Positions 1 through 61,863 of a stretch of DNA of 64,000 bases are shown here, one piece after another. The position numbers and the translations under genes are program-made. Position 1 is the stretch's first letter. Each line of letters starts with the position of its first letter. Origin of the DNA: Nanobdellota archaeon (lineage in GTDB: Archaea > Aenigmatarchaeota > Aenigmatarchaeia > Aenigmatarchaeales > Aenigmatarchaeaceae); NCBI GenBank assembly GCA_018901755.1, contig JAHIDZ010000015.1, positions 65,079 through 129,078 on the forward strand, written 5' to 3'. The notes beneath the pieces were generated by a model. The model was not told the DNA's origin. It did no database searches and worked only from the letters and a program-made list of their open reading frames with translations.

Positions 1-289
1 CACCTTCACCTGTTTCAAATACTTTCTTTGCATTTTCTTTAGTCATCCAGATTTCATAATATTTTCGTTTTTCAGGTGGTCCACGTGTTGCTTTAACTCT
101 GAATCCAGTCTCACATAGAGAATCATAGATGTCGTTTTTATATTCCAAATCATCAAGAACATGTATTTTAATTGTTGGTTTAAGATAGTCGTTAAATTTA
201 CCTTTTATCGTGCCACCACCAATTAGTACTGGTTTATCTTCTTCTGTAAATGTTATACATATTCCAGAACCAGCAACAGACGCTTTCAT
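1..289 (-). CDS. hypothetical protein, N-terminal part only (the ORF starts with ATG at 289 and runs past the window start)
   Basis: Open minus-strand frame with no stop from 289 to position 1. The translation begins MKASVAGSGICITFTEEDKPVLIGGGTIKGKF. I recognise no family. Confidence 0.4.
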   Translation of the reverse strand, partial: MKASVAGSGICITFTEEDKPVLIGGGTIKGKFNDYLKPTIKIHVLDDLEYKNDIYDSLCETGFRVKATRGPPEKRKYYEIWMTKENAKKVFETGEG

Positions 290-320
290 ATGTTTATTGA
301 TATAGAAAACTATTTAAGCA

Positions 321-1279: not shown

Positions 1280-2917
1280 ATGGAAACTGCTATCATGAAG
1301 CATGCATTGCTTAATGCCGCACAATATGACGGCAAGGCTAATGAGAATGCTGTTCTTGGAAAAATTTTAAGTGAAATACCAGAAGCTAGAAAAAATATAG
1401 ATCTTGTTAGAAAATCTATTTCAACGATTGTTAAGAAAGTTAATAGCATGACACCAGAAGAGCAGAAAAAATTAATTAAAGGATTTAAGTATGAAAAAGT
1501 TGAAAAGAAAGAACGTGAAGGATTACCACCGTTACAAGATGCTATTGATAGAAAAGTCGTTATGCGTTTAGCACCATTTCCTTCAGGTCCATTGCACATA
1601 GGAAACGCAAAACAATATATCATCAATGATTGGTATGTGAAACACTATCATGGTAAATTGCTTCTAGTTATGGACGATACGATGGGTTCTATGGAAAAAC
1701 AAATTGCAGTCGATGCTTATGATTTAATACCAGCTGGATTCGATTGGCTTGGAATAAAATATGATAAGAAGATAATTTACAAATCAGATCGATTGGAGAT
1801 ATATTACAAATATGCAGAAGATATTATCAAATCTGGCAAAGCTTATGTTTGTGAATGTGAATTTAGCGATTTGCGAAATAATAGAATGGCACAAAAAGAA
1901 TGTGTACATAGAAATCAGAGCATTGAAACTAATCTGAGTAAATGGAATGACATGATTAAAGGAAAATATAAAGAAGGAAGCGCTGTTTTAAGAATTAAAA
2001 CTTCAATGAATGACCCAAATCCAGCTTTCCGCGATCGTGTATTATTTAGAATATGCGATAGAGCACATCCACGTGTTGGAAAGAAATATAAAATATGGCC
2101 ACTTTTAGAATTTTCATGGGCGATTGATGATCATCTACTTGGTATAACACATGTTCTTCGTGGTAAAGAATTAATGATGGAGTCAGAGATGGAACGTTAC
2201 ATATGGGACATATTTGGATGGAAGCATCCTGTGATAATTCATACTGGACTACTGTTTATAGAAGGACTTAAGTTAAGCAAGTCTAAAGCACAACACGAAG
2301 TAACGTCAGGTGAATATTCTGGCTGGGATGATCCTAGAACATGGTCTCTACAGTCGTTAGCAAGAAGAGGATTTGAACCAGAAGCAATAAAGAATTTTAT
2401 AATTGCATTCGGTATAACGCAACATGAATCAAAAGTATCTTTAGATAAAATATATTCAGAAAATAGAAAACTTATTGATCATAAGGCTGAACGATATATG
2501 TTTGTAACTGATCCGATTGAAGTAATTTTAGATAAACTTCCGATGAAGAGTGTGAAAGCACCACTGTTTCCAGGAAAAAGAAAATATAGAACAATACCTG
2601 TAACTAAGAAGATATTTGTTGATAAAATAGACTTTATAGCAAATCGTGAAAAAGAAGTAAGACTTATGCATTTGTGCAACATCAATCTTAATACTAAATC
2701 TAAATTCACAGGCAAGACGAATAAAGATATACCGAAAATACATTGGGTATCTGGTAAACATGTTAAAGTAAAAATTGTTTTAGAAAATGGTAAAACAATA
2801 GAAGGTTTAGCTGAACCCAGTGTTGCTAAAGTAAAACCAGGACAGATGGTGCAGTTTGAGCGTTTATTTTTTGCTAGATGTGATAAGAAGAATTTATTCT
2901 ACTATGCGCACAAATAG
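1280..2917 (+). CDS. gltX: glutamyl-tRNA synthetase, archaeal type
   Basis: Class I HIGH motif (PSGPLHIGNA), KMSKS-like LSKSK and HVLRGKE. Length of 545 aa is typical of archaeal GluRS. Confidence 0.88.
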   Translation: METAIMKHALLNAAQYDGKANENAVLGKILSEIPEARKNIDLVRKSISTIVKKVNSMTPEEQKKLIKGFKYEKVEKKEREGLPPLQDAIDRKVVMRLAPFPSGPLHIGNAKQYIINDWYVKHYHGKLLLVMDDTMGSMEKQIAVDAYDLIPAGFDWLGIKYDKKIIYKSDRLEIYYKYAEDIIKSGKAYVCECEFSDLRNNRMAQKECVHRNQSIETNLSKWNDMIKGKYKEGSAVLRIKTSMNDPNPAFRDRVLFRICDRAHPRVGKKYKIWPLLEFSWAIDDHLLGITHVLRGKELMMESEMERYIWDIFGWKHPVIIHTGLLFIEGLKLSKSKAQHEVTSGEYSGWDDPRTWSLQSLARRGFEPEAIKNFIIAFGITQHESKVSLDKIYSENRKLIDHKAERYMFVTDPIEVILDKLPMKSVKAPLFPGKRKYRTIPVTKKIFVDKIDFIANREKEVRLMHLCNINLNTKSKFTGKTNKDIPKIHWVSGKHVKVKIVLENGKTIEGLAEPSVAKVKPGQMVQFERLFFARCDKKNLFYYAHK

Positions 2918-2948
2918 GGTTTAAATCTTTTTCTGTTCAAGTATTATT

Positions 2949-3215
2949 ATGACACTACTTAGAAAAGAAGGTAGCCATTTGTATAATTCTATAGGTCATA
3001 TTTTAATTGGTATTGGACTCACAGAAGATGTTGCATATGGAACACTTAATCGATCAGTTGAAAAGCTTGGTTTATCGCCTGGTTGCGTTCAAGAAGATAA
3101 TATAAACGGAATTTGTGACAATTTAGAGGTAGCTTTGTGTATTAGTCTTGATACGAAGAGAATGTCTGATTTGAGAAACAATATATACAAGCTTAAAGGC
3201 TCTGCTTCGAAATAG
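2949..3215 (+). CDS. hypothetical protein
   Basis: ORF only. No recognisable motifs. Confidence 0.3.
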   Translation: MTLLRKEGSHLYNSIGHILIGIGLTEDVAYGTLNRSVEKLGLSPGCVQEDNINGICDNLEVALCISLDTKRMSDLRNNIYKLKGSASK

Positions 3216-3275
3216 GGTCCATAAACCTTTAAATAGTTTATTAAATAACATAAGAATACAAAAATGGAACTAATG

Positions 3276-3293
3276 AAATGAGGTGATGATATG
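3276..3293 (+). promoter_or_regulatory. possible K-turn-like autoregulatory element in the L7Ae 5' leader overlapping the SD and start codon
   Basis: GAGGUGAUGAUAUGGAUGAA contains a C-box-like GUGAUGA and a second GAUGA. Archaeal L7Ae is known to bind a K-turn in its own leader. No paired D-box was found. Confidence 0.2.
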
Positions 3294-3605
3294 GATGAAT
3301 CAAAAATTCTTCATATAGTAGAAATTGCTAAAAATACAGGAAAAATAAGAATCGGCACAAATGAAACAACTAAAGCAGTAGAAAGAGGAATAGCAAAGTT
3401 AGTTGTAGTAGCTGATGATGTTACTCCTAGAGAAGTTATAATGCATCTAGAGCCGTTGTGTAATGAGAAGAAAATACCGTTAGCGCATGTAAATGGTAAG
3501 ATGGATTTAGGAAGAGCATGCGGAGTTACAGTACCTGCAGCAAGCATAGCAATTATTGAAGAAGGCGACGCAAAGAAAGATATTGCTGATATGAAAAAAG
3601 AGTGA
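3291..3605 (+). CDS. rpl7ae: 50S ribosomal protein L7Ae (K-turn binding)
   Basis: [19 protein letters not shown]...HLP.LC.EK.IP match the L7Ae/L30e family. Position is upstream of S28e, as in the conserved L7Ae-S28e-L24e cluster. A GGTGA Shine-Dalgarno lies 6 nt upstream. Confidence 0.9.
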
Positions 3606-3820: not shown

Positions 3821-4450
3821 ATGAAATGTGAGATAGATGTTAGGAGAGAAGACGATATCGGTTATACACTAGGTGTTATTGCTGGTGATGGGTTTATTGG
3901 AAAGAATACAGAAACGACAAGAATGATTATGCTATCTGTAAAAGATAAAGAATTTTGTGATAATTTTTCAAATAGTTTGTTTAATATATGCGGCCGAAAA
4001 TATAAGGTTAGTAGGGTTAATAATTATAGATATAGACAAGGTTATTGCTGGGTAACAAGATGTTGTATTCGACAAGTAGTTAACTTTTTTGAAAATTATG
4101 ATATTTATCAATTATCAGAAAATACAGATAAGATCAAGCTAGGTTTCTTAAGAGGTATGTTTGATGCAGAAGGTTGTAGCTTTTGTAAGCTTTATCCTAA
4201 AAGAGGAGGTTATTCAAGAACGGTTGCTGTTTTTAATAAAAATAAAAAATTACTTAATCTGTGTCAAGAATTATTGAATTCTTTCGAAATAAAAACAAGA
4301 AAATTTTCTAAAGATAAGGATGGTGTATATGCACTTCACCTGAGTCTTTCAAAAGAAAATCTAACGAAATTTAGGGATTTGATAAATTTTTCAATCCCGC
4401 GCAAAATTTCAAACTTGGAAACATGCTTAGAGAGTTATACGGGTGGTTAA
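3821..4450 (+). CDS. free-standing LAGLIDADG homing endonuclease-like protein
   Basis: Two LAGLIDADG motifs (LGVIAGDGFIG and LRGMFDAEGCS). The ATG abuts the S28e stop and the 3' end overlaps the L24e start. Confidence 0.8.
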   Translation: MKCEIDVRREDDIGYTLGVIAGDGFIGKNTETTRMIMLSVKDKEFCDNFSNSLFNICGRKYKVSRVNNYRYRQGYCWVTRCCIRQVVNFFENYDIYQLSENTDKIKLGFLRGMFDAEGCSFCKLYPKRGGYSRTVAVFNKNKKLLNLCQELLNSFEIKTRKFSKDKDGVYALHLSLSKENLTKFRDLINFSIPRKISNLETCLESYTGG

Positions 4451-5759: not shown

Positions 5760-6329
5760 TTACTGGTCTAAAAGCCAGTGTACTGTTGAGACAATTGACG
5801 AAGCAAGGTACGTTCGACTTCCTAGAGAAATTCGTTCACCTTTTCGTAAAGCAAACGATTCTTCATTTTTCGGTATGCCTTTATTGTCTCCTAGAACAAA
5901 AGTTGGATTTTCTACCTTCAAACTTGTTGTTTGTGACCCTTTAACACTTAAAATGAATATATTCTTAGCTTCTTTGATTAAATCTTGAAAACTTTTTCTA
6001 GAAACAGATATACCTGTCTGTACGTTAGTCCATTCTTTGTCTTTTACTGTGTTTAATGACTTCTTAATTACTAGAGCTATAGATCGTTCAGAAGGTTCTA
6101 TACCAATCATTTTATTTCCATCAAATTTGATTGAAACTGGTGGTCGTTTTCCTGAGTTAAGAATTACTATAATCTGTGTGTCTTTTCTCATCGCTTCAGA
6201 TACCCATAATGCGCCTAGTACACAACGGCAGATTACATCAATTCTGCCAGACTCGTATAGATGATCTATATTGAAATCATCAGTTGTTCCATGTGAGTAC
6301 ATGATAAATGTTCGTGTCATAATCATCAA
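5760..6329 (-). CDS. trmY: probable tRNA (pseudouridine54-N1)-methyltransferase, SPOUT, DUF358/COG1901 family
   Basis: GRIDVICRCVLGALWVSEAMRKDTQIIVILNSGKRPPVSIKFDG..IEPSERSIALVIKKSL resembles the Mj1640/TrmY family. Confidence 0.65.
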   Translation of the reverse strand: MMIMTRTFIMYSHGTTDDFNIDHLYESGRIDVICRCVLGALWVSEAMRKDTQIIVILNSGKRPPVSIKFDGNKMIGIEPSERSIALVIKKSLNTVKDKEWTNVQTGISVSRKSFQDLIKEAKNIFILSVKGSQTTSLKVENPTFVLGDNKGIPKNEESFALRKGERISLGSRTYLASSIVSTVHWLLDQ

Positions 6330-15532: not shown

Positions 15533-16489
15533 TTATTTTATTGGTATCATTTTTGCAATATTATATGCAAGTGGCCACGGAACGGCATTTCCGATTTGTC
15601 TATATTGTGATGAAATGGATCCTTCAAAGATAAAATCATCGGGAAAATTTTGAAGTCTTGCAACTTCTCTTACAGTCATCCTTCTTTTCAGATTTGGATG
15701 CGGTATTATAACAGGCCCTCCTGTTCCGCCACCTCTACCAACTATTGTTGGAGAAGGCTCATTCCATTTTGTTGCACGGTTTCCTATATGTCCGTTTATC
15801 TTAACTTGATGTTCAGTTCCGTGATGGTTTGGTATATCTCCATCAGTTTTTTCAGGAATTCCTTTTAACCCATCTTTTACTGTTTTCCACAGTGGAAGAT
15901 TATCTTTTCCATCTTTGGAATGCGTCGGATTAGGGTGTATTATTTTTGGTTCAATATCATTTCTTGTTCCAAGTATTATGATTCTTCTTCTTGCCTGTGG
16001 AACACCATAATCCGCAGAATTAAGTATTTTAAAATTAACAGTATAGCCAATTGAAATTGCATTTTCAAGTTCCTTTAAAATAATCTTTAATACCTTTCCA
16101 GTTTTTTTAGCCCGATCTTTAGAAGTTTCATAACCTCCGGCTGAACATAATCCGACAACATTTTCAGCAACGAAATATTTCGGTTCCTTATCCCTAATAA
16201 TACGAAGAAGTTCAAGGTATAATTTATTTCTTTTGTCTTCTGTGTGTCTATATGGATTAGCGATTGAAAATCCCTGACATGGAAATCCACCAATAACTAT
16301 ATCGGCATTAGGAATTTCCAATGATGGAATCTTTTCTATATTGGTGCAAATTGGCCTATGTTTGAAGTATTTTTCATATGTTTTACATGAATCTGAATCA
16401 TTATCATTGGACCAGACTATTATGTGTCCAGCTTTAACAAATCCGAGATCCATCCCACCTGCACCACAAAATAATGATATTATTTTCAT
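15533..16489 (-). CDS. dcm: DNA (cytosine-5)-methyltransferase
   Basis: Motif I FCGAGG, motif IV GFPCQGFS, motif VI ENV (FVAENVVGL) and motif X QIGNAVP. Confidence 0.9.
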   Translation of the reverse strand: MKIISLFCGAGGMDLGFVKAGHIIVWSNDNDSDSCKTYEKYFKHRPICTNIEKIPSLEIPNADIVIGGFPCQGFSIANPYRHTEDKRNKLYLELLRIIRDKEPKYFVAENVVGLCSAGGYETSKDRAKKTGKVLKIILKELENAISIGYTVNFKILNSADYGVPQARRRIIILGTRNDIEPKIIHPNPTHSKDGKDNLPLWKTVKDGLKGIPEKTDGDIPNHHGTEHQVKINGHIGNRATKWNEPSPTIVGRGGGTGGPVIIPHPNLKRRMTVREVARLQNFPDDFIFEGSISSQYRQIGNAVPWPLAYNIAKMIPIK

Positions 16490-17218: not shown

Positions 17219-17587
17219 TTATTTCAGATCATGCTCCCAGATTCTGATGACTTTCCATCCCTTCTTTCTGAGAATACAGTTTACTTTTCTGTCTCTTTTT
17301 ACGTTCCGTGCTATCTTAGGCAGCCAGTATAGTCTATTTGATTTAGGTGCTCTATAGTGCTTTGGGCACTTGTGCCAGAAGCAACCGTCAATAAAGAGGG
17401 CTATATTATATGATTTGCTGGCATAATCCGGTCTGCCGTAAATGCCTTTAGGCTGGTATGAGAAACCAAGCCTTTTCATGAGTTTCTTTATACTGAGTTC
17501 TGGCTTGGTCTTAGATGATTTGATACGGGACATGTTATAGCTACGCTGGGCTCTTGTATGCACATCTGTCATAAAAATATAAGACAC
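17219..17587 (-). CDS. vsr: very-short-patch repair endonuclease (Vsr)
   Basis: YNMSRIKSSKTKPE...FIDGCFWHKCP...RIWEHDL matches Vsr. Vsr is the functional partner of Dcm. Confidence 0.85.
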   Translation of the reverse strand: MSYIFMTDVHTRAQRSYNMSRIKSSKTKPELSIKKLMKRLGFSYQPKGIYGRPDYASKSYNIALFIDGCFWHKCPKHYRAPKSNRLYWLPKIARNVKRDRKVNCILRKKGWKVIRIWEHDLK

Positions 17588-18599: not shown

Positions 18600-19790
18600 C
18601 CAAGCCCTTTTCGGTCCGGTAATTTCAGCAGGCTTAGAATGATAATAATTAACCGTTATGGTTTTTATATCTATCTTGCTATATAGTTTGCTATATAGTG
18701 TATTTAAATCCTTTTGGGTGCAATTATACAATATGAAAATGGTGAAACAATCATATGCACAAAACTGGTCAGCATACAACAAAGCTCAGATGAATGAGAA
18801 ACAGCTATTCATGGAACTATTATGCGATTTGTGCAACGATGCTGAAGAACCGGAGTATGTATTCGGAAGACTTAAGATACCAGTTGCTGATATTTTATTC
18901 TGCAGTGCTTTTAAGATATATTCCGGCTATTCTGGTAGAAGATTTACAACAGATATGAGAACTGCAAAGGAAGACAACTACATCAGTAAAGTTCCGCATT
19001 ATAATTCGTTGTTTAATTTTTTGAAGAATCTTAATACATCAGCTATTCTTATGAAAATGATACAGAAATCAGGGCTTTCGTTAAAAGACGTTGAAACAAA
19101 ATTTGCTATTGATGCATCTGGATTTTCAACAACGAGATACAGAAGATGGTTTGATTTCAAATACGGTCATGAAAGGGACTTCAGAATATGGGTGAAAGCA
19201 CATGTAGTTTGCGGAGTAGGAACGAACATAGTTACAGCTGTTAGGCTGTCTGAAGCGAGGGCACACGATAATAAATTTTTCAAGGAGCTTATTAATGATA
19301 CTTCATCAAATTTCAATGTCTGCGAGATGTCAGCTGACAAAGCGTATATGTCAAGAAATAATCTTGAATTGGTTGATAGCCTTGGCGGAAAAGCATACAT
19401 ACCATTCAGATCTAATGTAACAGGAAAACAAAGAGGTTCTAAGCTGTGGGGTAAAATGTATCATTATTTCAAATATAACAATGAGGATTTTATGAAACAC
19501 TACCACCTTAGATCAAACGTCGAATCAACCTTTTCAATGATTAAACGAAAATTTGGTGATACTGTTAGAAGCAAAGATAAAACAGCACAATTTAATGAGA
19601 TTCTATGCAAGATTTTATGTCATAATATTTGTGTTGTTATACATGAAATGCACGAAATGGGTTTCTATAAGAAGACGGAATGGGCAAGTTAGTATTATCA
19701 GGTAAAAATTTATTCAAAAAGAAAAAGAGTTTAAGGACGAAATCCGATTTCTCGTTAAGGACAATTGTCCGATTTCGCCCTATCTATTAT
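18600..19790 (+). mobile_element. IS4/IS5-superfamily insertion sequence (boundaries approximate)
   Basis: Single DDE transposase ORF flanked by GC-rich segments carrying GGTCC/GGAC-GAAA motifs in inverted orientation (near 18603-18626 and 19737-19780). The terminal inverted repeats are imperfect and not firmly delimited. Confidence 0.45.
18733..19692 (+). CDS. DDE transposase, IS4/IS5 family
   Basis: NWSAYNKAQ N-terminal motif, DDE residues in DASGF, SADKAY and ESTFSMIKRKFG (E-x6-K/R). The start is taken at MKMVKQ (18733) rather than at the track's 18658. Confidence 0.8.
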   Translation: MKMVKQSYAQNWSAYNKAQMNEKQLFMELLCDLCNDAEEPEYVFGRLKIPVADILFCSAFKIYSGYSGRRFTTDMRTAKEDNYISKVPHYNSLFNFLKNLNTSAILMKMIQKSGLSLKDVETKFAIDASGFSTTRYRRWFDFKYGHERDFRIWVKAHVVCGVGTNIVTAVRLSEARAHDNKFFKELINDTSSNFNVCEMSADKAYMSRNNLELVDSLGGKAYIPFRSNVTGKQRGSKLWGKMYHYFKYNNEDFMKHYHLRSNVESTFSMIKRKFGDTVRSKDKTAQFNEILCKILCHNICVVIHEMHEMGFYKKTEWAS

Positions 19791-22766: not shown

Positions 22767-24161
22767 ATGGGTAAAAACGATGTATTGCGAAGTGTTTTAT
22801 CTAGCATAAGACCAAGTAAGATTGAGAGAGACCACGCTGAAATGTTTGCATTAAAACTTATAATGGTATCTAAACAGATATCAAAAAGTTATTCTATTGA
22901 ACCTATGTTCGTTGGTTCTTATGAAAAAAATACATGGTTAGCTGGAAATGATGAATTAGATTTATTTTTATTGTTTAGTCCTTCAACGCATAGAAAAAAA
23001 TTAGAAGAACAAGGATTGGAAATTGCTAAAAAGATAATAAATCAAATGGGCGGAACATATCAGAAAAAATATTCTGAACATCCTTATCTTTGCGCTACTG
23101 TAAAATTTGAAGGAATTGAATTTGATGTGGATATTGTTCCTTGCTATGACATTAAAGAGCTTAAAAAAATTAAATCTGCTGTTGATCGGACACCACATCA
23201 TGTTAGATTTGTAAAGAAAAATTTATTATTACCAGATGAAGTACGACTTTTGAAACAATTTTGTAAAGCTGCAGGAATTTATGGAGCCGATGTTAAAACA
23301 AATGGATTTTCTGGTTATCTTTGCGAGCTTATGATAATTAATTATGGTAAATTTGAAAACTGCATTAAAGATGCTATAAAATGGCGAGCACCAACTGTAA
23401 TGACTATAACTGAAATGGATAAGAAAAAATTAATTGATGTGTATAAAGGGCCGTTTATTGTAATAGATCCTGTTGATTTGAATAGAAATGTAGCTGCAGC
23501 TGTTTCAATTGAAAACTTTTATAAATTTATTGAAGCTGCTAGAAAATATATGAACAAGCCTTCTGAAAAATTATTCTTCCCAGATAAAGTTAAATCATAT
23601 TCTGTTAATGAGATAGGTAAAGAAATTGCTAATCGTGGAACAAGATGGTATGCAATTAAATTTGATAAACCAGATGTAACAGATGATATTCTTTATCCTC
23701 AGATGAGAAGGTGTGAAAACATTATAGAGAAGATAATGAATGAAGATGGTTTTGAAGTTATGAGAAAAGACTTTTATGTTGGTGAATTGTGTGTTATGCT
23801 TTTTGAAATGGAAAATTGGGAAGTACCGAGAGTATTCAAAAATATCGGTCCGAATATTTATACTAAACATGCTGAAGAATTTTTAAAACACTATAAAGAC
23901 CGTAAGATATTCTTAGAAGGAGAATACTGGGCAGTTGAGCTAGAACGAAAATACACAACGGCATTACACTTGTTGAAAGATCTTGTTTCAAACACTGATG
24001 CTAAATTAAAGGAAAAAGGAATTCCTAGCAAGATCGTATCTAATTTCAAGAATGCGTCTGTTGTATCTGGTTCTGATATGATTAAATTAATTGAAAAATT
24101 ACCTGAAGATTTTAGAGTCTTTATGAGAAACTGGTTTGAAAAGGATATTGATATTGTTTAA
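22767..24161 (+). CDS. cca: CCA-adding enzyme (archaeal class I tRNA nucleotidyltransferase)
   Basis: N-terminal Pol-beta NTase core (FVGSYEKNTWLAGNDELDLFLLF) followed by the archaeal CCA body and tail. Length of 464 aa fits. Confidence 0.85.
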   Translation: MGKNDVLRSVLSSIRPSKIERDHAEMFALKLIMVSKQISKSYSIEPMFVGSYEKNTWLAGNDELDLFLLFSPSTHRKKLEEQGLEIAKKIINQMGGTYQKKYSEHPYLCATVKFEGIEFDVDIVPCYDIKELKKIKSAVDRTPHHVRFVKKNLLLPDEVRLLKQFCKAAGIYGADVKTNGFSGYLCELMIINYGKFENCIKDAIKWRAPTVMTITEMDKKKLIDVYKGPFIVIDPVDLNRNVAAAVSIENFYKFIEAARKYMNKPSEKLFFPDKVKSYSVNEIGKEIANRGTRWYAIKFDKPDVTDDILYPQMRRCENIIEKIMNEDGFEVMRKDFYVGELCVMLFEMENWEVPRVFKNIGPNIYTKHAEEFLKHYKDRKIFLEGEYWAVELERKYTTALHLLKDLVSNTDAKLKEKGIPSKIVSNFKNASVVSGSDMIKLIEKLPEDFRVFMRNWFEKDIDIV

Positions 24162-24283
24162 TGAGTTTAAGGTATATCTACACGGTTTTGAATATATACT
24201 GTTCCCCATGTTTCATCTGATAAATCAGCATCTATTTTTGTTGGTGGATAATATATATCTAAATCATCTGGCATCATAATCAC

Positions 24284-24514
24284 CTAATAAATATATTGTC
24301 CGGTTTTTTCAAATTCTCCAAGTGCCTTTTTACCATCTTCTGTTATAGAGTAAGAATCGCCTTCATTTTTTACAAATTTGTGTTCGTATAGTCTTGATAC
24401 TGTAGTTAGAGGATGTCCTTTACTACCAGATAATTTATGTAGTATTAGTAAATCTGTATTTCCAATTGATAGTGTTTGTAACACCTTAACTTCAGTCGAT
24501 TTCATTTCAACCAT
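24284..24514 (-). CDS. small winged-helix-like protein
   Basis: ORF only. Helix-turn-helix-like pattern. Confidence 0.35.
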   Translation of the reverse strand: MVEMKSTEVKVLQTLSIGNTDLLILHKLSGSKGHPLTTVSRLYEHKFVKNEGDSYSITEDGKKALGEFEKTGQYIY

Positions 24515-24590
24515 AATATATATTACTCTAAAGTAGTATATAAATCTATCGGTTAGACGAAATTATTAATAAAGAGCGCCTATAACCTTT

Positions 24591-25478
24591 ATGCCAGAAC
24601 CAATAGAAATAACATTTCTAGGAACAGGAGCAGCCGTTCCAACAATACGAAGAAATCATTCAGCAATAGTATTACATTATACCGGAGAGTATATTTTATT
24701 TGACTGCGGAGAAGGGACACAATTACAGCTACAGAAAGCTAAGATATCACCATTAAAGATATCAAAAATATTCATAACACATTGGCATGCTGACCATTTC
24801 GCTGGACTATTGCCACTAATAGAAACATTACATCTTGAAAAACGGACGGAACCGCTGGAAATATATGGTCCTGAAGCATCACGGTTTGTAGACGCTATAA
24901 TTGAATTAAGTTATTGGGGAACAGGATTTGACATAATAGCTAAAGATGTAGAATCTAATCAGAAAATATTTGAAAATGATTTATTTGAAATTTCAACAAT
25001 TAAGACAAGGCATTCTGTTCCATCAGTTGGATATTGTTTCAAAGAAAAGGATCATGTTCATATTGATATCGGTAAAGCAAATAAATTTGGATTAAGAGGA
25101 ATAGATATTAGAAAAATCAAGGAAGATGGAAAAATAAAGATAGGAGATAAAATCATTAAATTGGAAGATGTTTCTAAAATTACACCTGGTAGAAAAATAA
25201 TTTACACCGGAGATACAAGAATATGTCCTGAAATTTTTAAGGCAGCTAAAAATATTGATTTGCTTATACATGAAGGCACGTTTATTGAAAGATTTGAGGA
25301 AAGAGAACATTCTTCTGCTAAAGAAGTTGCGAGACTTGCAAAAAAGAATAATGTAAAAAAGTTAATTTTAACACATTTCAGTAAAAGATATAAAACTTCT
25401 AAGGAGATAGAGAAAGTCGTTAAACTGATTTTTAGTAAAGCCATTGTTGCACAAGATTTGATGAAGGTAAAAATATGA
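24591..25478 (+). CDS. rnz: ribonuclease Z (tRNA 3' endonuclease)
   Basis: ITFLGTGAAVPT, metallo-beta-lactamase HxHxDH (THWHADHFAGL). Confidence 0.9.
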   Translation: MPEPIEITFLGTGAAVPTIRRNHSAIVLHYTGEYILFDCGEGTQLQLQKAKISPLKISKIFITHWHADHFAGLLPLIETLHLEKRTEPLEIYGPEASRFVDAIIELSYWGTGFDIIAKDVESNQKIFENDLFEISTIKTRHSVPSVGYCFKEKDHVHIDIGKANKFGLRGIDIRKIKEDGKIKIGDKIIKLEDVSKITPGRKIIYTGDTRICPEIFKAAKNIDLLIHEGTFIERFEEREHSSAKEVARLAKKNNVKKLILTHFSKRYKTSKEIEKVVKLIFSKAIVAQDLMKVKI

Positions 25479-28063: not shown

Positions 28064-28166
28064 GGGTCCATAAGTTAAATTTTAATTTAACTGGAATGCT
28101 CAGTTTGGCTAGAGCACCTGCCTCTTAAGCAGGGGGTCGCGGGTTCAAATCCCGTTGGACCCACCA
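28064..28166 (+). tRNA. tRNA-Lys (anticodon CUU) with a 25-nt intron between positions 9 and 10; CCA encoded
   Basis: Acceptor GGGUCCA/UGGACCC, D-stem GCUC/GAGC, anticodon arm CCUGC-CUCUUAA-GCAGG and T-arm GCGGG-UUCAAAU-CCCGU. The intron at 28073..28097 (AGUUAAAUUUUAAUUUAACUGGAAU) forms an 8-bp hairpin. Confidence 0.78.
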
Positions 28167-42806: not shown

Positions 42807-43616
42807 TCACCATCTAAATTTTGAAGGTTGCAGTCTGCATATCATTCTTTGTGTATTTACCTTTTTATAATAACATTCATATTCTATATCTTTAAGCGTA
42901 TTATTGTAGAAATCTGTCAGTGATTTATTATGCAAAAGTATCGAAAACTCATTTCTTTTATGATATATGCATAATTTATGTGAATAATTATTTTTTAATA
43001 GTTGAACAATTTGTTTGGCGAGTATTTCGTTTTTTAAAGAAGATGCCACTAAAATATTATCTTTCAATTTAATTTTACCATTGCTTCCTTCATCAATAAA
43101 ACATGCTCTTAAGATGGAGTTTTTCCAGCTTGGATTTTTTAGAGCAAGTGCAATTATTTTTTTAGGAAGTTTCCTTCTTTCAAACCCATAATGATTTATT
43201 AGTAAATTTGATGCTACAGAAGATAGCCCGTATGATTTTACACCGTTTTGATTGCTATGGTATAGAGCGGTGCCCATTCCAATTTTTTTAACTAAATCAG
43301 AAAACATTTCTTGTTCCATGTTGTTGCGCGTTTCATAATAAAAGGAGTTTCCCCTTCCTACGGTGCCATCAAATAAAGTATGTGCTATTATTTCGGCGTG
43401 TTCTGGCATTTCTTTATACGGAAATTTATTAAGTATAAAATTTATTTTCGGGTAGTTAAATATGATTATGTGCGATTCTATAGATTTTTTTGATATTTTA
43501 AGAACGTCAATCCATTTAAGGAATATGTTAATCGTTGGGTGTCTATGACCATTTTCATAGTGAGATATGCGTCCTTTTTTAATTTGTATTAATTTTGCTA
43601 TGGCTTTCTGTGTCAA
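42807..43616 (-). CDS. HTH (XRE-like) fused to a LAGLIDADG homing endonuclease-like domain
   Basis: N-terminal QKAIAKLIQIKKGRISHYENG HTH. LAGLIDADG motifs IIAHTLFDGTVG and LRACFIDEGSNG. Confidence 0.75.
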   Translation of the reverse strand: MTQKAIAKLIQIKKGRISHYENGHRHPTINIFLKWIDVLKISKKSIESHIIIFNYPKINFILNKFPYKEMPEHAEIIAHTLFDGTVGRGNSFYYETRNNMEQEMFSDLVKKIGMGTALYHSNQNGVKSYGLSSVASNLLINHYGFERRKLPKKIIALALKNPSWKNSILRACFIDEGSNGKIKLKDNILVASSLKNEILAKQIVQLLKNNYSHKLCIYHKRNEFSILLHNKSLTDFYNNTLKDIEYECYYKKVNTQRMICRLQPSKFRW

Positions 43617-43740
43617 TTTCAGTTCATTTTTTTTAGAAACCAGAAGTTTTTTAAAATATGGCGTTATTATAACCCTGCTTCGTTGAGAGGCTTCCCACCA
43701 ATGAATTAAATTATTGTTGGTTGGTATTAAATCACCATTA

Positions 43741-43860
43741 TGGTGCGGGAGGCAGGATTTGAACCTGCGAATGAACTAATCAACTGGGTCCTAAGCTTCG
43801 CTCAAGAATAAACGTATTTAATCTTGTCCAGCGCCTTAGACCTAGCTTGGCAACTCCCGC
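43741..43860 (-). tRNA. tRNA-Leu (anticodon UAG) with a 31-nt intron at the anticodon-stem position 30/31 (or 31/32); CCA encoded
   Basis: Minus-strand read GCGGGAG-UU-GCC...GGC-G-CUGG[ACAAGAUUAAAUACGUUUAUUCUUGAGCGAA]G-CUUAGGA-CCCAG-UUGAUUAGUUCAUUC(variable arm)-GCAGG-UUCAAAU-CCUGC-CUCCCGC-A-CCA. Removing the intron gives a perfect CUGGG/CCCAG anticodon stem with G37. The D-arm and long variable arm match archaeal tRNA-Leu. Confidence 0.7.
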
Positions 43861-43904
43861 ATGTAAGATATTATTAAACATATTAGTTTATATAAATTTA
43901 AGAA

Positions 43905-44360: not shown

Positions 44361-44480
44361 TCAATCATCCTTTTAATTTATTCAAACTCAGAGTATTTAA
44401 TGATTATGGTGCACTGTGCGAGATTCACCACCAAGGGTGAAAACGTGCTTTAAACTGAAGCAACAACATTTCATTAATTT

Positions 44481-45224
44481 ATGAATAACATTGATAAAAA
44501 TAAGGTATTACGTCTGTATAAAGATGGGTATACATTAGCACAGATTTCTATAAACACTGGACTAAGTAAAACTACAATTTATTATCATACGCGGAAGCAA
44601 TTTGGGAGAAAATATAAGCTCATAACGATTTCAGATAACAGAGAGAAAATTGGTGAATTCATTGGTGTTTTTACAGGAGACGGGTATTTCATTAAGGATA
44701 AGATAGGACATTACAAAACAATGATAACTGTTTCGATTAAAGCATCTGAATACATAAAGCACTTAGATACGATTTTTACAGAACTGTTTTCTAAATCCCC
44801 ACTTATTATCAAAAGACTTAAATATAATACAGTCGAACTTCGATACGATTCTAAAGAAATATACGAATTGATAAAAAACTATTTGTTTTGGGATGGAAAG
44901 AAACATAACTCAGTTAGACTGCTGGTAATTGAGCACGATAAGGAATTTCTTACAGGATTCTTAAGAGGTTGCCTAGATACAGATGGTCATGTTCATAAGA
45001 ATTATAAAAGAATATGCTTTTCTACCACATCTCTATTTTTGGCGAACCAGCTTTCTTCTATTTTAACTAATCTTGGTTTTGAGAACAAAATTCTAATAGC
45101 AAGAGATAAGAGATTGAATAGAAAATTGTTATATAATGTAAGATTGTTGGGAGAAGAAGCTATTAGATTGATTAAAACAATTAAACCAGGAAATCCTTCA
45201 AAGAGAAGAGATTGGTGCGAGTGA
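44481..45224 (+). CDS. HTH fused to a LAGLIDADG homing endonuclease-like domain
   Basis: N-terminal HTH (YKDGYTLAQISINTGLSKTTIYYHTRKQ). LAGLIDADG motifs IGVFTGDGYF and LRGCLDTDGHV. The last 9 nt overlap the acceptor stem of tRNA-Gly on the opposite strand. Confidence 0.8.
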   Translation: MNNIDKNKVLRLYKDGYTLAQISINTGLSKTTIYYHTRKQFGRKYKLITISDNREKIGEFIGVFTGDGYFIKDKIGHYKTMITVSIKASEYIKHLDTIFTELFSKSPLIIKRLKYNTVELRYDSKEIYELIKNYLFWDGKKHNSVRLLVIEHDKEFLTGFLRGCLDTDGHVHKNYKRICFSTTSLFLANQLSSILTNLGFENKILIARDKRLNRKLLYNVRLLGEEAIRLIKTIKPGNPSKRRDWCE

Positions 45225-45303
45225 GGGGATTTGAACCCCTGTTGTAAACTTTTTGCGAAATTCTTGGCAAGCTTACGTACTGGCCAGACTATACGACACT
45301 CGC
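45213..45303 (-). tRNA. tRNA with a 14-nt intron at the canonical 37/38 position, most likely tRNA-Gly (anticodon GCC); CCA encoded
   Basis: Minus-strand read GCGAGUG-UC-GUAU-AGUCUGGCCA-GUAC-G-UAAGC-UUGCCA[AGAAUUUCGCAAAA]A-GUUUA-CAAC-AGGGG-UUCAAAU-CCCCU-CACUCGC-A-CCA. UUGC of the loop can pair with GCAA in the intron, giving a BHB-like helix flanked by 3-nt bulges. Confidence 0.62.
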
Positions 45304-54942: not shown

Positions 54943-55304
54943 AGGGTCAATTTTTTATAATATCAACAGTAATAATGATTTCTGCACTTATTTTGATAAT
55001 GAATTATCTTTATGATTATGGTAAAGTTGATTTAAGCAACGTCGAAAAGATGCAGGAATTAAATTATATCGGTGATGTGAAAAATAGTTTAATGCAAACA
55101 TTGCAAATATCATGTGCTAATTCTCAGAATCCAGAAATGAATCTTGTTCTTTCGGAGAAGAATCTTAAAGAAAGATTATTAGAACGTGGTATAGTTCTTG
55201 AAGTGGCTCATACTAATGTAGGATGCAACCCAGAACCAGTAGGAGATATTACTTTTAAGATTAAATCAAATACTTTTTCTATAGAAAATAGTTTTTCAGT
55301 CTAA
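54939..55304 (+). CDS. small secreted/membrane protein with a possible class III (type IV pilin-like) signal peptide
   Basis: MKG|QFFIISTVIMISALILIM: a short basic leader, Gly, then Gln followed by a hydrophobic helix. Confidence 0.35.
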   Translation: MKGQFFIISTVIMISALILIMNYLYDYGKVDLSNVEKMQELNYIGDVKNSLMQTLQISCANSQNPEMNLVLSEKNLKERLLERGIVLEVAHTNVGCNPEPVGDITFKIKSNTFSIENSFSV

Positions 55305-56384
55305 GCCCGTTATTATTTTAAGATATGGCAGTTGAGTTTTTATGCACCTTTTTGAGCAATGCAACTCTTGCGCTAATTTACCATGTGTTTCATTATTTTC
55401 AGCTCTATCTTCTTTGCTTTTACCGAGTATCATGATTTTTTCTGGAGGCTTATATGGTGTGTATGAATTGTCTTTTCTTATTAGTGTCATAGATACCATC
55501 ATGTTTTTCATATATAATAACATTCTGTAGTTTTTTCCAACATAAACTTTTTCTCTAAACATATCTGCTTTACTAAGTATATCAAATGCGAATGCAATTT
55601 CTTCAGGTTTTTTATATTCGTTTGTAATATTTTGTTCCATCCACCAAAAGATTTCTTCAATATCTTTATCACAAGAATCAATTGCTTTTGAGGCATCATT
55701 GAGACTATTAGATTTGAATATTATTCTAATAGCTTCGAAAATGTTTATACCTCTTTCTCTGAATCCAATTATTTCAGTATGTGTTACTTTTTTTCTATTA
55801 GTTATTATTATTTGTAGATCATTTATTGCAGATCTTAAATCTCCGCCAGAACTTTCTGCTATTCTTACAATTATATCATTGTCTACTTCTACACCTTCTT
55901 TAGCACATATTTCTCTTAGTTTTTTACCAATTGATAATGTTCCAATTCTTCTAAATTGAATTAATGTGCAGTAGCCTCTTAATGTTCTGAGACCTTTATC
56001 ATATGCATCGTTAGCAGTAAGTATTACAGGAAATTTGCTGGTTTTAATAAGATTTATTATTTCAGTAACAGTTCCTTTGTCAGTATAATTATCAATTTCA
56101 TCTACAACTATTATTCTTTTTGCACCAAGCAGAGACATCATTGTTGAAGATGATTTTATTTTTTTTACTTCTTCTATTTCAGATGCGTGAACTTCGGTTA
56201 TATTTATTTTATTATCAATTGATATTACCTGTGATATAATTGTTTTTCCAATACCAGGTGCACCATAAAGAAGAATCGCTTTTCCAGTTTTGAATGTTTT
56301 AATATATTCTACAATATTTGCCAAAGCTGTAGAATTTCCAACAATGTCTGATACTTTTTTTGGTTTATATCTGTTTACTAACAT
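55296..56384 (-). CDS. rfcL: replication factor C large subunit
   Basis: NRYKPKKVSDIVGN, Walker A GAPGIGKT, Walker B VVDEID and SRC-like region. The start overlaps the stop of the upstream LAGLIDADG gene by 7 nt. Confidence 0.8.
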   Translation of the reverse strand: MLVNRYKPKKVSDIVGNSTALANIVEYIKTFKTGKAILLYGAPGIGKTIISQVISIDNKINITEVHASEIEEVKKIKSSSTMMSLLGAKRIIVVDEIDNYTDKGTVTEIINLIKTSKFPVILTANDAYDKGLRTLRGYCTLIQFRRIGTLSIGKKLREICAKEGVEVDNDIIVRIAESSGGDLRSAINDLQIIITNRKKVTHTEIIGFRERGINIFEAIRIIFKSNSLNDASKAIDSCDKDIEEIFWWMEQNITNEYKKPEEIAFAFDILSKADMFREKVYVGKNYRMLLYMKNMMVSMTLIRKDNSYTPYKPPEKIMILGKSKEDRAENNETHGKLAQELHCSKRCIKTQLPYLKIITGLD

Positions 56385-57373
56385 CGTGATACCCCTACTA
56401 TTGCTCTCATATTATTTGCTCTTTTAATACGGTTTGGATGTTGCAATGGCGTATTGTTTAAAAATGTAGGAATAGAATCAACCTTTAAAGAAAAATCGTA
56501 TGTGATACCAAATTCCTTTACCCTTGTAGATATCTTTCCAGATTGCATATTCAAGCGTTCGGTAAATAATTTTAATTCTTCTAGAAACATTCTGTCTGCT
56601 TGGGCGAATATAATTTTTTTATCGGGTTCATATATACAACCATCGGCATCGAAAAACCCTGCGATAAAGGCATTTTTGATTTCTTTTGAACCATTATATA
56701 TAATATCCGGTATTTTTAGTTGTCCTTTCTTTTTACCCATTGGTATACCGCATATTTTATTAAGAAAAATAAACAACACCTTAGACTGTATGTAAATTTC
56801 AAAGCATTTGGAATTTGTTTTATATATATTAGCTTTCAAATCAAATTGATTATTGATAAATTTGTTGAATTTATTAGCAAATTTTACCGTGTCTGAAGCT
56901 ATTTCAATCATGTATTTGAAATTTCCAGTTCTCATTTTTGGTTTCCATATATCTACAAGACAACCATCACCTATGATATAACCGATAATGTATGACAGTT
57001 CTTCTGTAATTTCTTTTGGAAGTTTTACTATTTTACCCTTAGCCACAGAAAAATACTCATTTTCTTTGAATGCAGATTCAATTATTTTGTTTTTTTCATC
57101 TTCTGATTTTCTGCAAACTCCTTTCCAAATATTTATTAGTTGAAAGAATTTCGATATGGGTATTGGTGAAGTTCCGTTAATCCAATTTGAAACTGTTCTC
57201 CTCGGAACGCCAAAAGACATCGTTGTAAGTTTAATAATTCCCTTCCCATGCTCCTTCTTTATTTCAGAATATAAATTTTTAGTTATGTTACTTATATCAC
57301 ACATTCTAATTTCATCATTTCTATCGTAATTAGACAAAACCATAAAATAGTTTGGGATTTTAATAATTATCAC
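56378..57373 (-). CDS. HTH fused to a LAGLIDADG homing endonuclease-like domain; GTG start
   Basis: N-terminal HTH-like region (GVPRRTVSNWINGTSPIPISKFFQLI). LAGLIDADG motifs IIGYIIGDGCLV and FIAGFFDADGCIY. It sits between rfcS and rfcL. Confidence 0.8.
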   Translation of the reverse strand: MIIIKIPNYFMVLSNYDRNDEIRMCDISNITKNLYSEIKKEHGKGIIKLTTMSFGVPRRTVSNWINGTSPIPISKFFQLINIWKGVCRKSEDEKNKIIESAFKENEYFSVAKGKIVKLPKEITEELSYIIGYIIGDGCLVDIWKPKMRTGNFKYMIEIASDTVKFANKFNKFINNQFDLKANIYKTNSKCFEIYIQSKVLFIFLNKICGIPMGKKKGQLKIPDIIYNGSKEIKNAFIAGFFDADGCIYEPDKKIIFAQADRMFLEELKLFTERLNMQSGKISTRVKEFGITYDFSLKVDSIPTFLNNTPLQHPNRIKRANNMRAIVGVSRC

Positions 57374-57377
57374 CTAG

Positions 57378-58346
57378 TTATTCCTTTCTGAACAGTGCAA
57401 ATTGTGCAAGCAAACTTTCCAACTGTATTTGTTCATTACCACCTTGGTTGATTCTGAATTCAAATTCTCCAACCTTTTCAATAAGATTTACTTTTTCTTT
57501 TTCTGTTAAATCGATACTGTATATTTGCTGCATTATCTGTTTTATTATATCTTGCCCACAAATTCCATCTTTTAAAATCATATTATTTAAAATTTTTCTT
57601 GCTTCTAAGAAATTTCCTTTTAATGAAATTTCAAGCATATTTTTTACTTCTTTTGGCTCTGCGATTGAAGCTACATCATATATGGCTTTCTCGGTGATAT
57701 TTTTAGTATTAATTGCGGCAGTTTGAAGAATGTTTATTGCTTTTCTAATATCACCTTCAGATAATTTGCATATTGCATCTATTGCATCTGAATCTGCACT
57801 TACCTTTTCCATTCCGATTATCAGATCGAGCCGTTTCTTTATACTTTCATCTGAAATTGTTTTAAATCTAAAAACACAGCATCTAGACTGCAATGGTTCT
57901 ATTATTTTTGAAGAATAATTGCATGATAGGAAGAATCTGCACGAATTACTATAGCTTTCCATTGTTCTTCTTAGTGCATTTTGCGCGTCAGCTGTTAGTG
58001 CATCTGCTTCATCTAGAAATATTATTTTATACGGTATGTTTCCGACAGATTTTGTTCTTGCGAAATCTTTTACTTTTGATCTAATTACGTTAATTCCTCT
58101 TTCATCTGAAGAATTAAGTTCAAGGAAGTTCTGTCTCCAGTTGCTTCCAAATAGCTTTTTTGCTATTATTATTGATATTGTTGATTTACCACACCCGGCA
58201 GGTCCTGCGAACATTAGATGTGGGATTTGTCGAGAATCAACAAAAGCTGAGATTCTTTCAATTATGTTTTCTTGCCCAACAACATCTGAAAATTCAGTTG
58301 GTCTGTACTTTTCGGTCCATATTTGATATTCAGTCATAGTAATCAT
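57378..58346 (-). CDS. rfcS: replication factor C small subunit, no intein
   Basis: WTEKYRP, Walker A GPAGCGKST, DEAD-like FLDEADALT, and SRC motif (SRC in LQSRCCVFRF). Confidence 0.92.
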   Translation of the reverse strand: MITMTEYQIWTEKYRPTEFSDVVGQENIIERISAFVDSRQIPHLMFAGPAGCGKSTISIIIAKKLFGSNWRQNFLELNSSDERGINVIRSKVKDFARTKSVGNIPYKIIFLDEADALTADAQNALRRTMESYSNSCRFFLSCNYSSKIIEPLQSRCCVFRFKTISDESIKKRLDLIIGMEKVSADSDAIDAICKLSEGDIRKAINILQTAAINTKNITEKAIYDVASIAEPKEVKNMLEISLKGNFLEARKILNNMILKDGICGQDIIKQIMQQIYSIDLTEKEKVNLIEKVGEFEFRINQGGNEQIQLESLLAQFALFRKE

Positions 58347-61786: not shown

Positions 61787-61863
61787 GCCTCGGTAGTTCA
61801 GTCGGTACGAATGCTCGCTTGGTAAGTGAGAGGTCGTGGGTTCAATTCCCACCCGAGGCTCCA
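61787..61863 (+). tRNA. tRNA-Thr (anticodon GGU), no intron, CCA encoded
   Basis: GCCUCGG-UA-GUUC-AGUCGGUAC-GAAU-G-CUCGC-UUGGUAA-GUGAG-AGGUC-GUGGG-UUCAAUU-CCCAC-CCGAGGC-U-CCA. Confidence 0.9.

Follow-up and report, generated by a model that had tools for sequence, protein, structure and literature searches.

Within the analysed window, i.e., the whole 64-kb stretch of DNA, 120 nucleotides of the minus strand resemble a tRNA-Leu gene with a broken anticodon arm. The question is whether the 31 extra nucleotides in that arm are an intron of a working tRNA or a lesion that inactivated the gene, and between which bases they lie. With a probability of about 90%, the locus is a functional DPANN tRNA-Leu(UAG) gene with a 31-nt BHB-type, protein-spliced intron at 30/31. 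The identity of the gene, its exact junctions, the geometry and conservation of the BHB motif, and the archaeal host are established. The host is clearly archaeal: genes for TFB, TBP, RNA polymerase A'/A''/B, S8e, aIF5A, MCM, RFC, and an archaeal CCA-adding enzyme were found in the window. The source MAG, GCA_018899515.1, is labelled 'Nanoarchaeota archaeon' at NCBI, and the closest named relatives are labelled Aenigmarchaeota.

The gene was read as the reverse complement of window positions 43741-43860, i.e., GCGGGAGUUGCCAAGCUAGGUCUAAGGCGCUGG-[ACAAGAUUAAAUACGUUUAUUCUUGAGCGAA]-GCUUAGGACCCAG...CCUCCCGCACCA, which starts with GCGGGAG and ends with CUCCCGC-A-CCA; the minus strand corrects an earlier reading. 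The Rfam tRNA model (RF00005) was matched end to end on 43744-43860 of this strand, at a low score of 37.7 bits, and 40 nt between the two stem strands of the anticodon arm were left unaligned. ARAGORN, run on the window in default mode, did not report the interrupted gene. When the 31 nt ACAAGAUUAAAUACGUUUAUUCUUGAGCGAA were deleted, the remaining 89-nt sequence was called tRNA-Leu(tag) by ARAGORN. In the predicted spliced tRNA, the acceptor stem is 7 bp, the D-stem 3 bp, and the T-stem 5 bp long, the variable arm is long, the CCA is encoded, and the 5-bp anticodon stem CUGGG/CCCAG (C27-G31/C39-G43) encloses the loop CUUAGGA. Across seven orthologues the spliced cloverleaf was 100% paired, six pairs were changed on both sides, and no shuffle was as good (0/500). 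The tRNA-Leu(UAG) cloverleaf is therefore under selection. All three pairs of the variable-arm stem covary across the tRNA-Leu orthologues.

Upstream of the gene, the BRE/TATA-like box was found at equal distance from tRNA-Leu in the related loci L021, L004, and L022, and this box is probably the promoter. Downstream, at 43729-43745 on the minus strand, the discriminator-CCA end and the trailer form an inverted repeat, CACCA-UAA-UGGUG, followed by AUUU. The repeat is kept in L021 and L004, and it was not found in L022, L024, or L026. It may serve in termination or in processing of the 3' end. The features of the gene and of its surroundings are listed in Table 1.

Table 1. Positions of the tRNA-Leu(UAG) gene, its splicing motif, the other tRNA genes, and adjacent ORFs in the window.
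Feature	Position	Strand	Description
Complete tRNA-Leu(UAG) gene	43741-43860	minus	Pre-tRNA of 120 nt; Rfam, ARAGORN post-splicing, covariation
5' exon	43828-43860	minus	tRNA 1-30: acceptor 5' strand, D-arm, G26, anticodon-stem C27-G30
31-nt intron ACAAGAUUAAAUACGUUUAUUCUUGAGCGAA	43797-43827	minus	Between G30 and G31
3' exon	43741-43796	minus	Position 31 to CCA: G31, loop CUUAGGA, C39-G43, long variable arm, T-arm, acceptor 3' strand
Anticodon UAG	43791-43793	minus	Within loop CUUAGGA
Discriminator A	43744	minus	
Encoded 3' CCA	43741-43743	minus	
Putative archaeal promoter, BRE/TATA-like AAATTTATATAAAC	43886-43899	minus	Ends 25 nt before tRNA position 1
Central helix H, exon strand CGCU	43830-43833	minus	tRNA 25-28; 4/4 pairs in register
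Central helix H, intron strand AGCG	43799-43802	minus	Intron nt 26-29
5' bulge G29 G30↓A (intron nt 1)	43827-43829	minus	Predicted splice site (↓) after second bulge nt
3' bulge AA↓G31	43796-43798	minus	Predicted splice site (↓) after second bulge nt
Outer helix h, 3' strand C32 U33 U34	43793-43795	minus	Pairs with D-stem A22 G23 G24 (43834-43836)
Inner helix h' and loop	43803-43826	minus	CAAGA.UAAA-UACG-UUUA.UCUUG, intron-only hairpin
tRNA-Lys(CUU)	28064-28166	plus	25-nt strict-BHB intron (28073-28097) at non-canonical 9/10
tRNA-Gly(GCC)	45213-45303	minus	Canonical 14-nt intron at 37/38
tRNA-Thr(GGU)	61787-61863		No intron
LAGLIDADG_3/HTH_7 gene, free-standing	44481-45224		Antisense to cassette tRNA-Gly
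269-aa HTH_3 protein	42807-43616	minus	Between tRNA-Leu and UPP synthase

A pattern of the 3' exon alone, scanned against one genome per species, gave a single match in a Candidatus Aenigmatarchaeota MAG (L004). The tRNA-Leu of L004 is insert-free, scores 57.1 bits against the Rfam tRNA model compared with 37.7 bits for the interrupted window gene, and differs from the window exons by one compensatory change in the variable arm, i.e., A-U to G-C. The 5' exon of the window has the same sequence in L004 and in L021. The L004 locus is syntenic: the downstream genes code for UPP synthase, LysRS, and an M50 peptidase and match those of the window at 77% nucleotide identity, and the upstream gene codes for the same small protein. 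By using this 151-aa upstream protein as a probe, the locus was found in five more populations, and L032 was found later. Six syntenic orthologues are insert-free, i.e., L004, L022, L023, L024/L025, L026, and L032; each of them follows the gene of the 151-aa protein, and UPP synthase and LysRS are encoded nearby. The intron is retained in L021, in which the neighbouring protein shares 87% identity with that of the window, and the L021 exons show compensatory changes in the variable arm. The same protein is 51% identical in L004 and 65% in L022. These two diverged versions of the locus are held by one MAG, GCA_028715225.1, a bin that probably mixes two populations.

Seven syntenic orthologues, i.e., the window and L021 with the insert and L022, L004, L023, L024, and L026 without it, were aligned by MAFFT, and a single clean 31-column gap appeared exactly at the insert. 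The intronless tRNA-Leu of L032 was read separately, outside this alignment. The exons of the orthologues are identical to those of the window or carry compensatory changes only. The junctions are thus fixed by the six intronless orthologues without recourse to folding. The first base of the intron is A and that of the 3' exon is G, and the last base of the intron is A and that of the 5' exon is G. Because the flanking bases differ (G↓A...A↓G), the indel is unable to slide and its placement is unique. In standard numbering the insert lies at 30/31 and not at 37/38. Splicing at 31/32, a slide by one nucleotide, was rejected, as it gives an A31-C39 mispair and a product unlike all orthologues.

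The original prediction had proposed a class II tRNA-Leu with anticodon UAG and G37, and this was borne out by in-silico splicing with ARAGORN, by the intronless orthologues, and by the BHB motif in register. The predicted 31-nt length and exact sequence of the intron agree with in-silico splicing, with the orthologue gap, and with the BHB register. Its removal restores the anticodon stem and the CUUAGGA loop as had been expected, and the product equals the intronless orthologues. The intron was correctly placed in the anticodon stem and away from 37/38. The choice between 30/31 and 31/32, or an equivalent shifted by one nucleotide, had been left open, and the orthologues and flanking bases retain only the former.

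The insert of L021 carries two substitutions, both at unpaired positions, i.e., the hairpin loop and the 3' bulge. This pattern is consistent with selection on pairing and is statistically weak. No further copy of the intron was found in the window (up to 3 mismatches) or in viral contigs, and by inspection the 31 nt hold no RUGAUGA or CUGA box of a C/D-box guide. Group I introns have a ribozyme core (P3-P9), are a few hundred nucleotides long, and usually lie in the anticodon loop. A self-splicing group I intron was rejected here, as the insert has 31 nt and no Rfam intron family was matched anywhere in the window. A split or permuted tRNA gene was also rejected, as the two exons lie together, in collinear order, within 120 nt.

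For the BHB scan, the 5' bulge was defined as the last two nucleotides of the 5' exon and intron nucleotide 1 (3 nt), helix H as the preceding four exon nucleotides paired with intron nucleotides n-5 to n-2, and the 3' bulge as the last two intron nucleotides and the first nucleotide of the 3' exon. At the junction defined by the orthologues, a strict hBHBh' motif was found in register (H=4, h=3, h'=5), which is the outcome of the BHB search at the proposed junctions that had been suggested as a check. Outer helix h has three contiguous base pairs, then an A-A mismatch and three more pairs. Inner helix h' has 5 bp (CAAGA/UCUUG) and, past one U-U mismatch, 4 bp (UAAA/UUUA). The hairpin predicted within the intron is real, and the MFE fold contains it at a pair probability of 0.995. 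In L021, the sole substitution in this hairpin falls in the loop, and the 3' bulge is AU↓G with the substituted base unpaired. When the introns were shuffled, the 4-bp H helix appeared in 0.57% and the full observed motif in 4.5e-5. To calibrate the cleavage register, we used the canonical introns in tRNA-Gly of the window and of L023, and both show the same geometry. The junction of the L023 intron (H=4, h=5, h'=5) does not slide, and its position is defined by L021 and L024, in which this intron is absent. The properties of a BHB tRNA intron were thus found at this locus, i.e., a restored cloverleaf, 3-nt bulges around a 4-bp helix, and flanking helices of at least 2 bp.

The BHB can form only when D-stem and anticodon stem are both open, because helix h uses the D-stem 3' strand and the anticodon loop, and the motif competes with the 3-bp D-stem. 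The MFE structure of the isolated BHB region is the BHB. The MFE fold of the full 120-nt precursor (-43.9 kcal/mol, z = -4.2) is in a slipped register and contains two 2x2 internal loops. This fold was rejected as evidence for the BHB, which is absent from it. The best full-length fold containing the BHB has -41.2 kcal/mol, i.e., 2.7 above the MFE, and the H pairs reach 0.07-0.12 ensemble probability. We read the BHB as the expected alternative fold of the precursor, which would be captured by the enzyme, and not the MFE fold as contrary evidence. Thermodynamic folding by itself is no proof of the BHB and no refutation of it, and it would not have identified the motif.

In the proposed pathway, the anticodon stem and the 3-bp D-stem would be unable to form in the precursor, and exon nucleotides 25-28 (CGCU) would pair with intron nucleotides 26-29 (AGCG) instead. 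On either side of this 4-bp helix there would be a 3-nt bulge, GG↓A and AA↓G, the two being staggered. An outer exon-exon helix, i.e., the D-arm 3' strand with the anticodon loop, and the inner intron hairpin would complete the strict hBHBh'. The archaeal splicing endonuclease (EndA) would cut after the second nucleotide of each bulge, an RtcB-type ligase would join G30 to G31, and the cloverleaf with the anticodon loop CUUAGGA would then fold. As the motif is a strict hBHBh', the intron should be a substrate for any EndA type. EndA cleavage and ligation are inferred from established knowledge of the pathway (PMC5829648, PMC4090602, PMC4307357), and expression of the tRNA-Leu is presumed. By Pfam scan, no EndA or RtcB was found among the approximately 55 ORFs of the 64-kb window.

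Other explanations of the insert were weighed against this reading. If a functional tRNA-Leu(UAG) had been inactivated by a random 31-nt insertion while another copy works, the failure of ARAGORN and the low Rfam score would be accounted for. However, such a pseudogene is very unlikely, given that the insert has a strict BHB exactly in register, which shuffling reproduces at the rate of 4.5e-5 given above, and that both exons are intact and the same as in functional-looking orthologues. L021 also keeps the insert and the exons, with changes at unpaired intron positions and compensatory ones in the variable arm. Conservation extends to the putative promoter box and the encoded CCA. The gene fills the single syntenic tRNA-Leu(UAG) slot, and a second copy is absent from the window. 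Splicing of a genuine intron at other junctions, i.e., 31/32 or a relaxed slipped motif, is hardly to be expected either. The full-length MFE does pair U28 with G and G29 with C in the slipped register in place of the 4-bp H, and a 1-nt shift had been entertained earlier. The product of such splicing is nevertheless unlike all six intronless orthologues, with the G31-C39 pair broken, and the indel in the DNA cannot be slid. At 30/31 the geometry is 3-4-3, as it is in the canonical introns of this gene neighbourhood that served for calibration.

The intron might instead have been brought or mobilised by an adjacent mobile gene, i.e., the 269-aa HTH ORF or the LAGLIDADG gene, a scenario that would resemble collaborative homing between an intron and a free-standing homing endonuclease. 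Compared with L021, the window has extra ORFs on either side of the pair of tRNA-Leu and 151-aa genes, and the LAGLIDADG gene sits in a cassette that replaced the neighbouring tRNA-Gly. Both forms of this scenario are highly improbable, since L021 has the intron without either ORF and L032 has the LAGLIDADG cassette yet an intronless tRNA-Leu. The 269-aa ORF shows no LAGLIDADG signal. Its homologues lie directly upstream of UPP synthase in four other genomes (L027-L030) with no adjacent tRNA, so it is a resident and not a mobile gene. An integrative element would leave a displaced remnant of the tRNA-Leu 3' end as its signature, and a search for one found none. The least credible explanation is an assembly or chimera artefact, for which it can be said that the source is a MAG and that the related MAG GCA_028715225.1 has two versions of the locus. 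The identical locus was assembled independently three times, i.e., from one NCBI MAG and two unrelated SRA runs, which argues against an assembly artefact. A diverged copy with the same insert comes from a fourth assembly, the JGI metagenome of L021. The insert is neither a chance feature nor an assembly artefact.

The intron in the anticodon stem also has a history that can be read from related genomes. In an NJ tree of the neighbouring protein, the window and L021 were grouped with 100% bootstrap and nested within intronless taxa, with L022 as sister at 73%, then L004 and a clade of L023/L024/L026. The tree is built from one 151-aa protein with midpoint rooting, and its key node has 73%. Most likely the intron arose by one recent gain, in the ancestor that the window organism shares with L021; the alternative of two or three losses is less parsimonious. 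The matched orthologues with and without the intron thereby date a gain event.

An unrelated 19-nt intron was found at the same site, 30/31, in a metagenomic tRNA-Leu(UAG) of a different lineage (L014). Its bulges are as in the window, and its helix H is changed on both strands (exon GGCU, intron GGCC), i.e., the first pair is altered on both sides. The outer helix is 1 bp, which gives the relaxed HBh' form. The L014 gene (about 179-303, plus strand) has a second non-canonical intron, a 22-nt HBh' in the D-loop, and without both introns it was called tRNA-Leu(tag) by ARAGORN. L019, an intronless relative of L014, has neither. Based on the recent 31-nt gain in the window and L021 and the unrelated intron of L014, it may be suggested, as a rather doubtful idea, that 30/31 of tRNA-Leu(UAG) is a preferred landing site for de novo BHB introns in DPANN archaea. 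If so, the paired alleles with and without the intron would be an unusually clean natural case for the insertion of a BHB intron into DNA, the mechanism of which is still unknown according to a review (PMC4090602).

Non-canonical BHB introns of archaea were described by Marck & Grosjean 2003 and Sugahara et al. 2008, as reviewed in PMC4090602. The site 30/31 is listed there among the archaeal non-canonical tRNA intron sites (Yoshihisa 2014, PMC4090602), and relaxed HBh'/hBH forms also occur (PMC4090602). The intron studied here is like these introns in being short and outside 37/38, in its two 3-nt bulges and 4-bp exon-intron helix, in the cloverleaf restored by its removal, and in the shared 30/31 site. 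Most catalogued cases come from Crenarchaeota/Thermoproteales, whereas the present host is an Aenigmarchaeota-like DPANN archaeon and the motif is a strict hBHBh'. DPANN lineages are known to have many disrupted tRNA genes (Kaneta et al. 2018, PMC5829648). A related case with experimental data is Sulfurisphaera (Sulfolobus) tokodaii, in which EndA was shown to cut the anticodon-stem intron of a tRNA-Leu at the predicted BHB (PMC4307357). In both cases a BHB-like intron interrupts the anticodon stem of a class II tRNA-Leu. The S. tokodaii tRNA, however, is a CAG or GAG isoacceptor from another phylum with an unrelated intron, and cleavage was measured there and is predicted from the sequence here.

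The split tRNA-Lys(CUU) of Nanoarchaeum equitans/Staphylothermus, as summarised in PMC4090602 (Fujishima 2009; Chan 2011), has the same 30/31 break with a BHB at the junction. In that summary its two genes are joined in trans, whereas the tRNA-Leu exons of the window are contiguous in one predicted transcript. Presence and absence of the intron among close relatives is shared with the intron transposition and gain of Thermoproteales, as outlined in the same review (Fujishima et al. 2010, in PMC4090602), and points to a recent gain at the DNA level. Unlike transposition as outlined there, no donor intron of similar sequence was found in the window or in the viral contigs searched. Other nearby introns share only a generic layout, i.e., N, a hairpin, 4 nt complementary to the exon, and 2 nt. 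The novelty that the original prediction implied for the position was overstated, since 30/31 is documented (PMC4090602) and a tRNA-Leu anticodon-stem intron has been cleaved (PMC4307357). Non-canonical BHB introns, the rare 30/31 site, anticodon-stem introns of tRNA-Leu, and disrupted tRNAs of DPANN are all documented already, and the understanding of how such introns are spliced is unchanged. What is noteworthy is the recent acquisition, the clean series of orthologues with and without the intron, and the recurrence of the site in L014. An Aenigmarchaeota-like DPANN lineage also joins the hosts of non-canonical BHB introns.

Four tRNA genes were found in the window, and all encode their own CCA. 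The tRNA-Leu intron was correctly counted as the second non-canonical one in four tRNAs, i.e., Leu at 30/31 and Lys(CUU) at 9/10, with a canonical 37/38 intron in Gly and none in Thr. The tRNA-Lys(CUU) intron lies in the context GGGUCCAUA↓AGUUAAAUUUUAAUUUAACUGGAAU↓GCUC. This gene was matched by Rfam over model positions 10-63 only and missed by ARAGORN, and it was called tRNA-Lys(ctt) when spliced. The anticodon loop of tRNA-Gly(GCC) is UUGCCA↓AGAAUUUCGCAAAA↓A, with the H helix UUGC/GCAA. ARAGORN called this gene tRNA-Trp(cca); the call was rejected, as the spliced sequence was called tRNA-Gly(gcc). The tRNA-Gly intron is present in the window and L023 and absent in L021 and L024. Standard bacterial-mode tools thus miss an essential tRNA-Leu (ARAGORN) or misname its neighbour, i.e., Gly called Trp. 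DPANN MAGs therefore seem tRNA-deficient unless intron-aware archaeal models are used.

At 44407-45303 of the window, the resident tRNA-Gly was overwritten by a cassette of another tRNA-Gly allele and the antisense LAGLIDADG_3/HTH_7 gene. The 3' end of the ancestral tRNA-Gly is left as a 20-nt remnant, GAATCTCGCACAGTGCACCA, at 44407-44426. L032 has the same cassette at 2126-3339, between a 5' fragment of the ancestral tRNA-Gly (1 to about 31) and the 3' remnant. In L021, L023, and L024, the ancestral tRNA-Gly is present and the cassette is absent. The cassette resembles a homing-endonuclease element equipped with a replacement tRNA of its own. In a literature search, no archaeal description of such an element was found. 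Presumably its closest analogue is SegB of the phage T4 tRNA cluster. Further LAGLIDADG_3 ORFs were found at 3821-4450 (plus strand) and at 56378-57373 (minus strand), the latter between the RFC subunit genes at 55296-56384 and 57378-58346.

The 269-aa HTH_3 protein was not found in L021, L004, or L024, and in L027-L030 it is encoded directly upstream of UPP synthase. By-eye motifs had suggested a LAGLIDADG endonuclease, but neither Pfam (E<=10), nor a sequence search of the PDB, nor a BLASTP comparison with the real LAGLIDADG ORF supported this, and the idea was rejected. Its N-terminus is 35-60 aa shorter than those of its homologues (303-330 aa), and the window protein may be truncated or start-shifted.

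Genes of tRNA maturation were also found at 22767-25478 and 5760-6329, i.e., a CCA-adding enzyme, a metallo-beta-lactamase resembling tRNase Z, and an RNA methyltransferase of the Methyltrn_RNA_2 family, which is possibly aTrm56-like. At 15533-16489 a C-5 cytosine DNA methylase is encoded; a Vsr mismatch endonuclease (17219-17587) is close by, followed by a DDE transposase (18658-19692).
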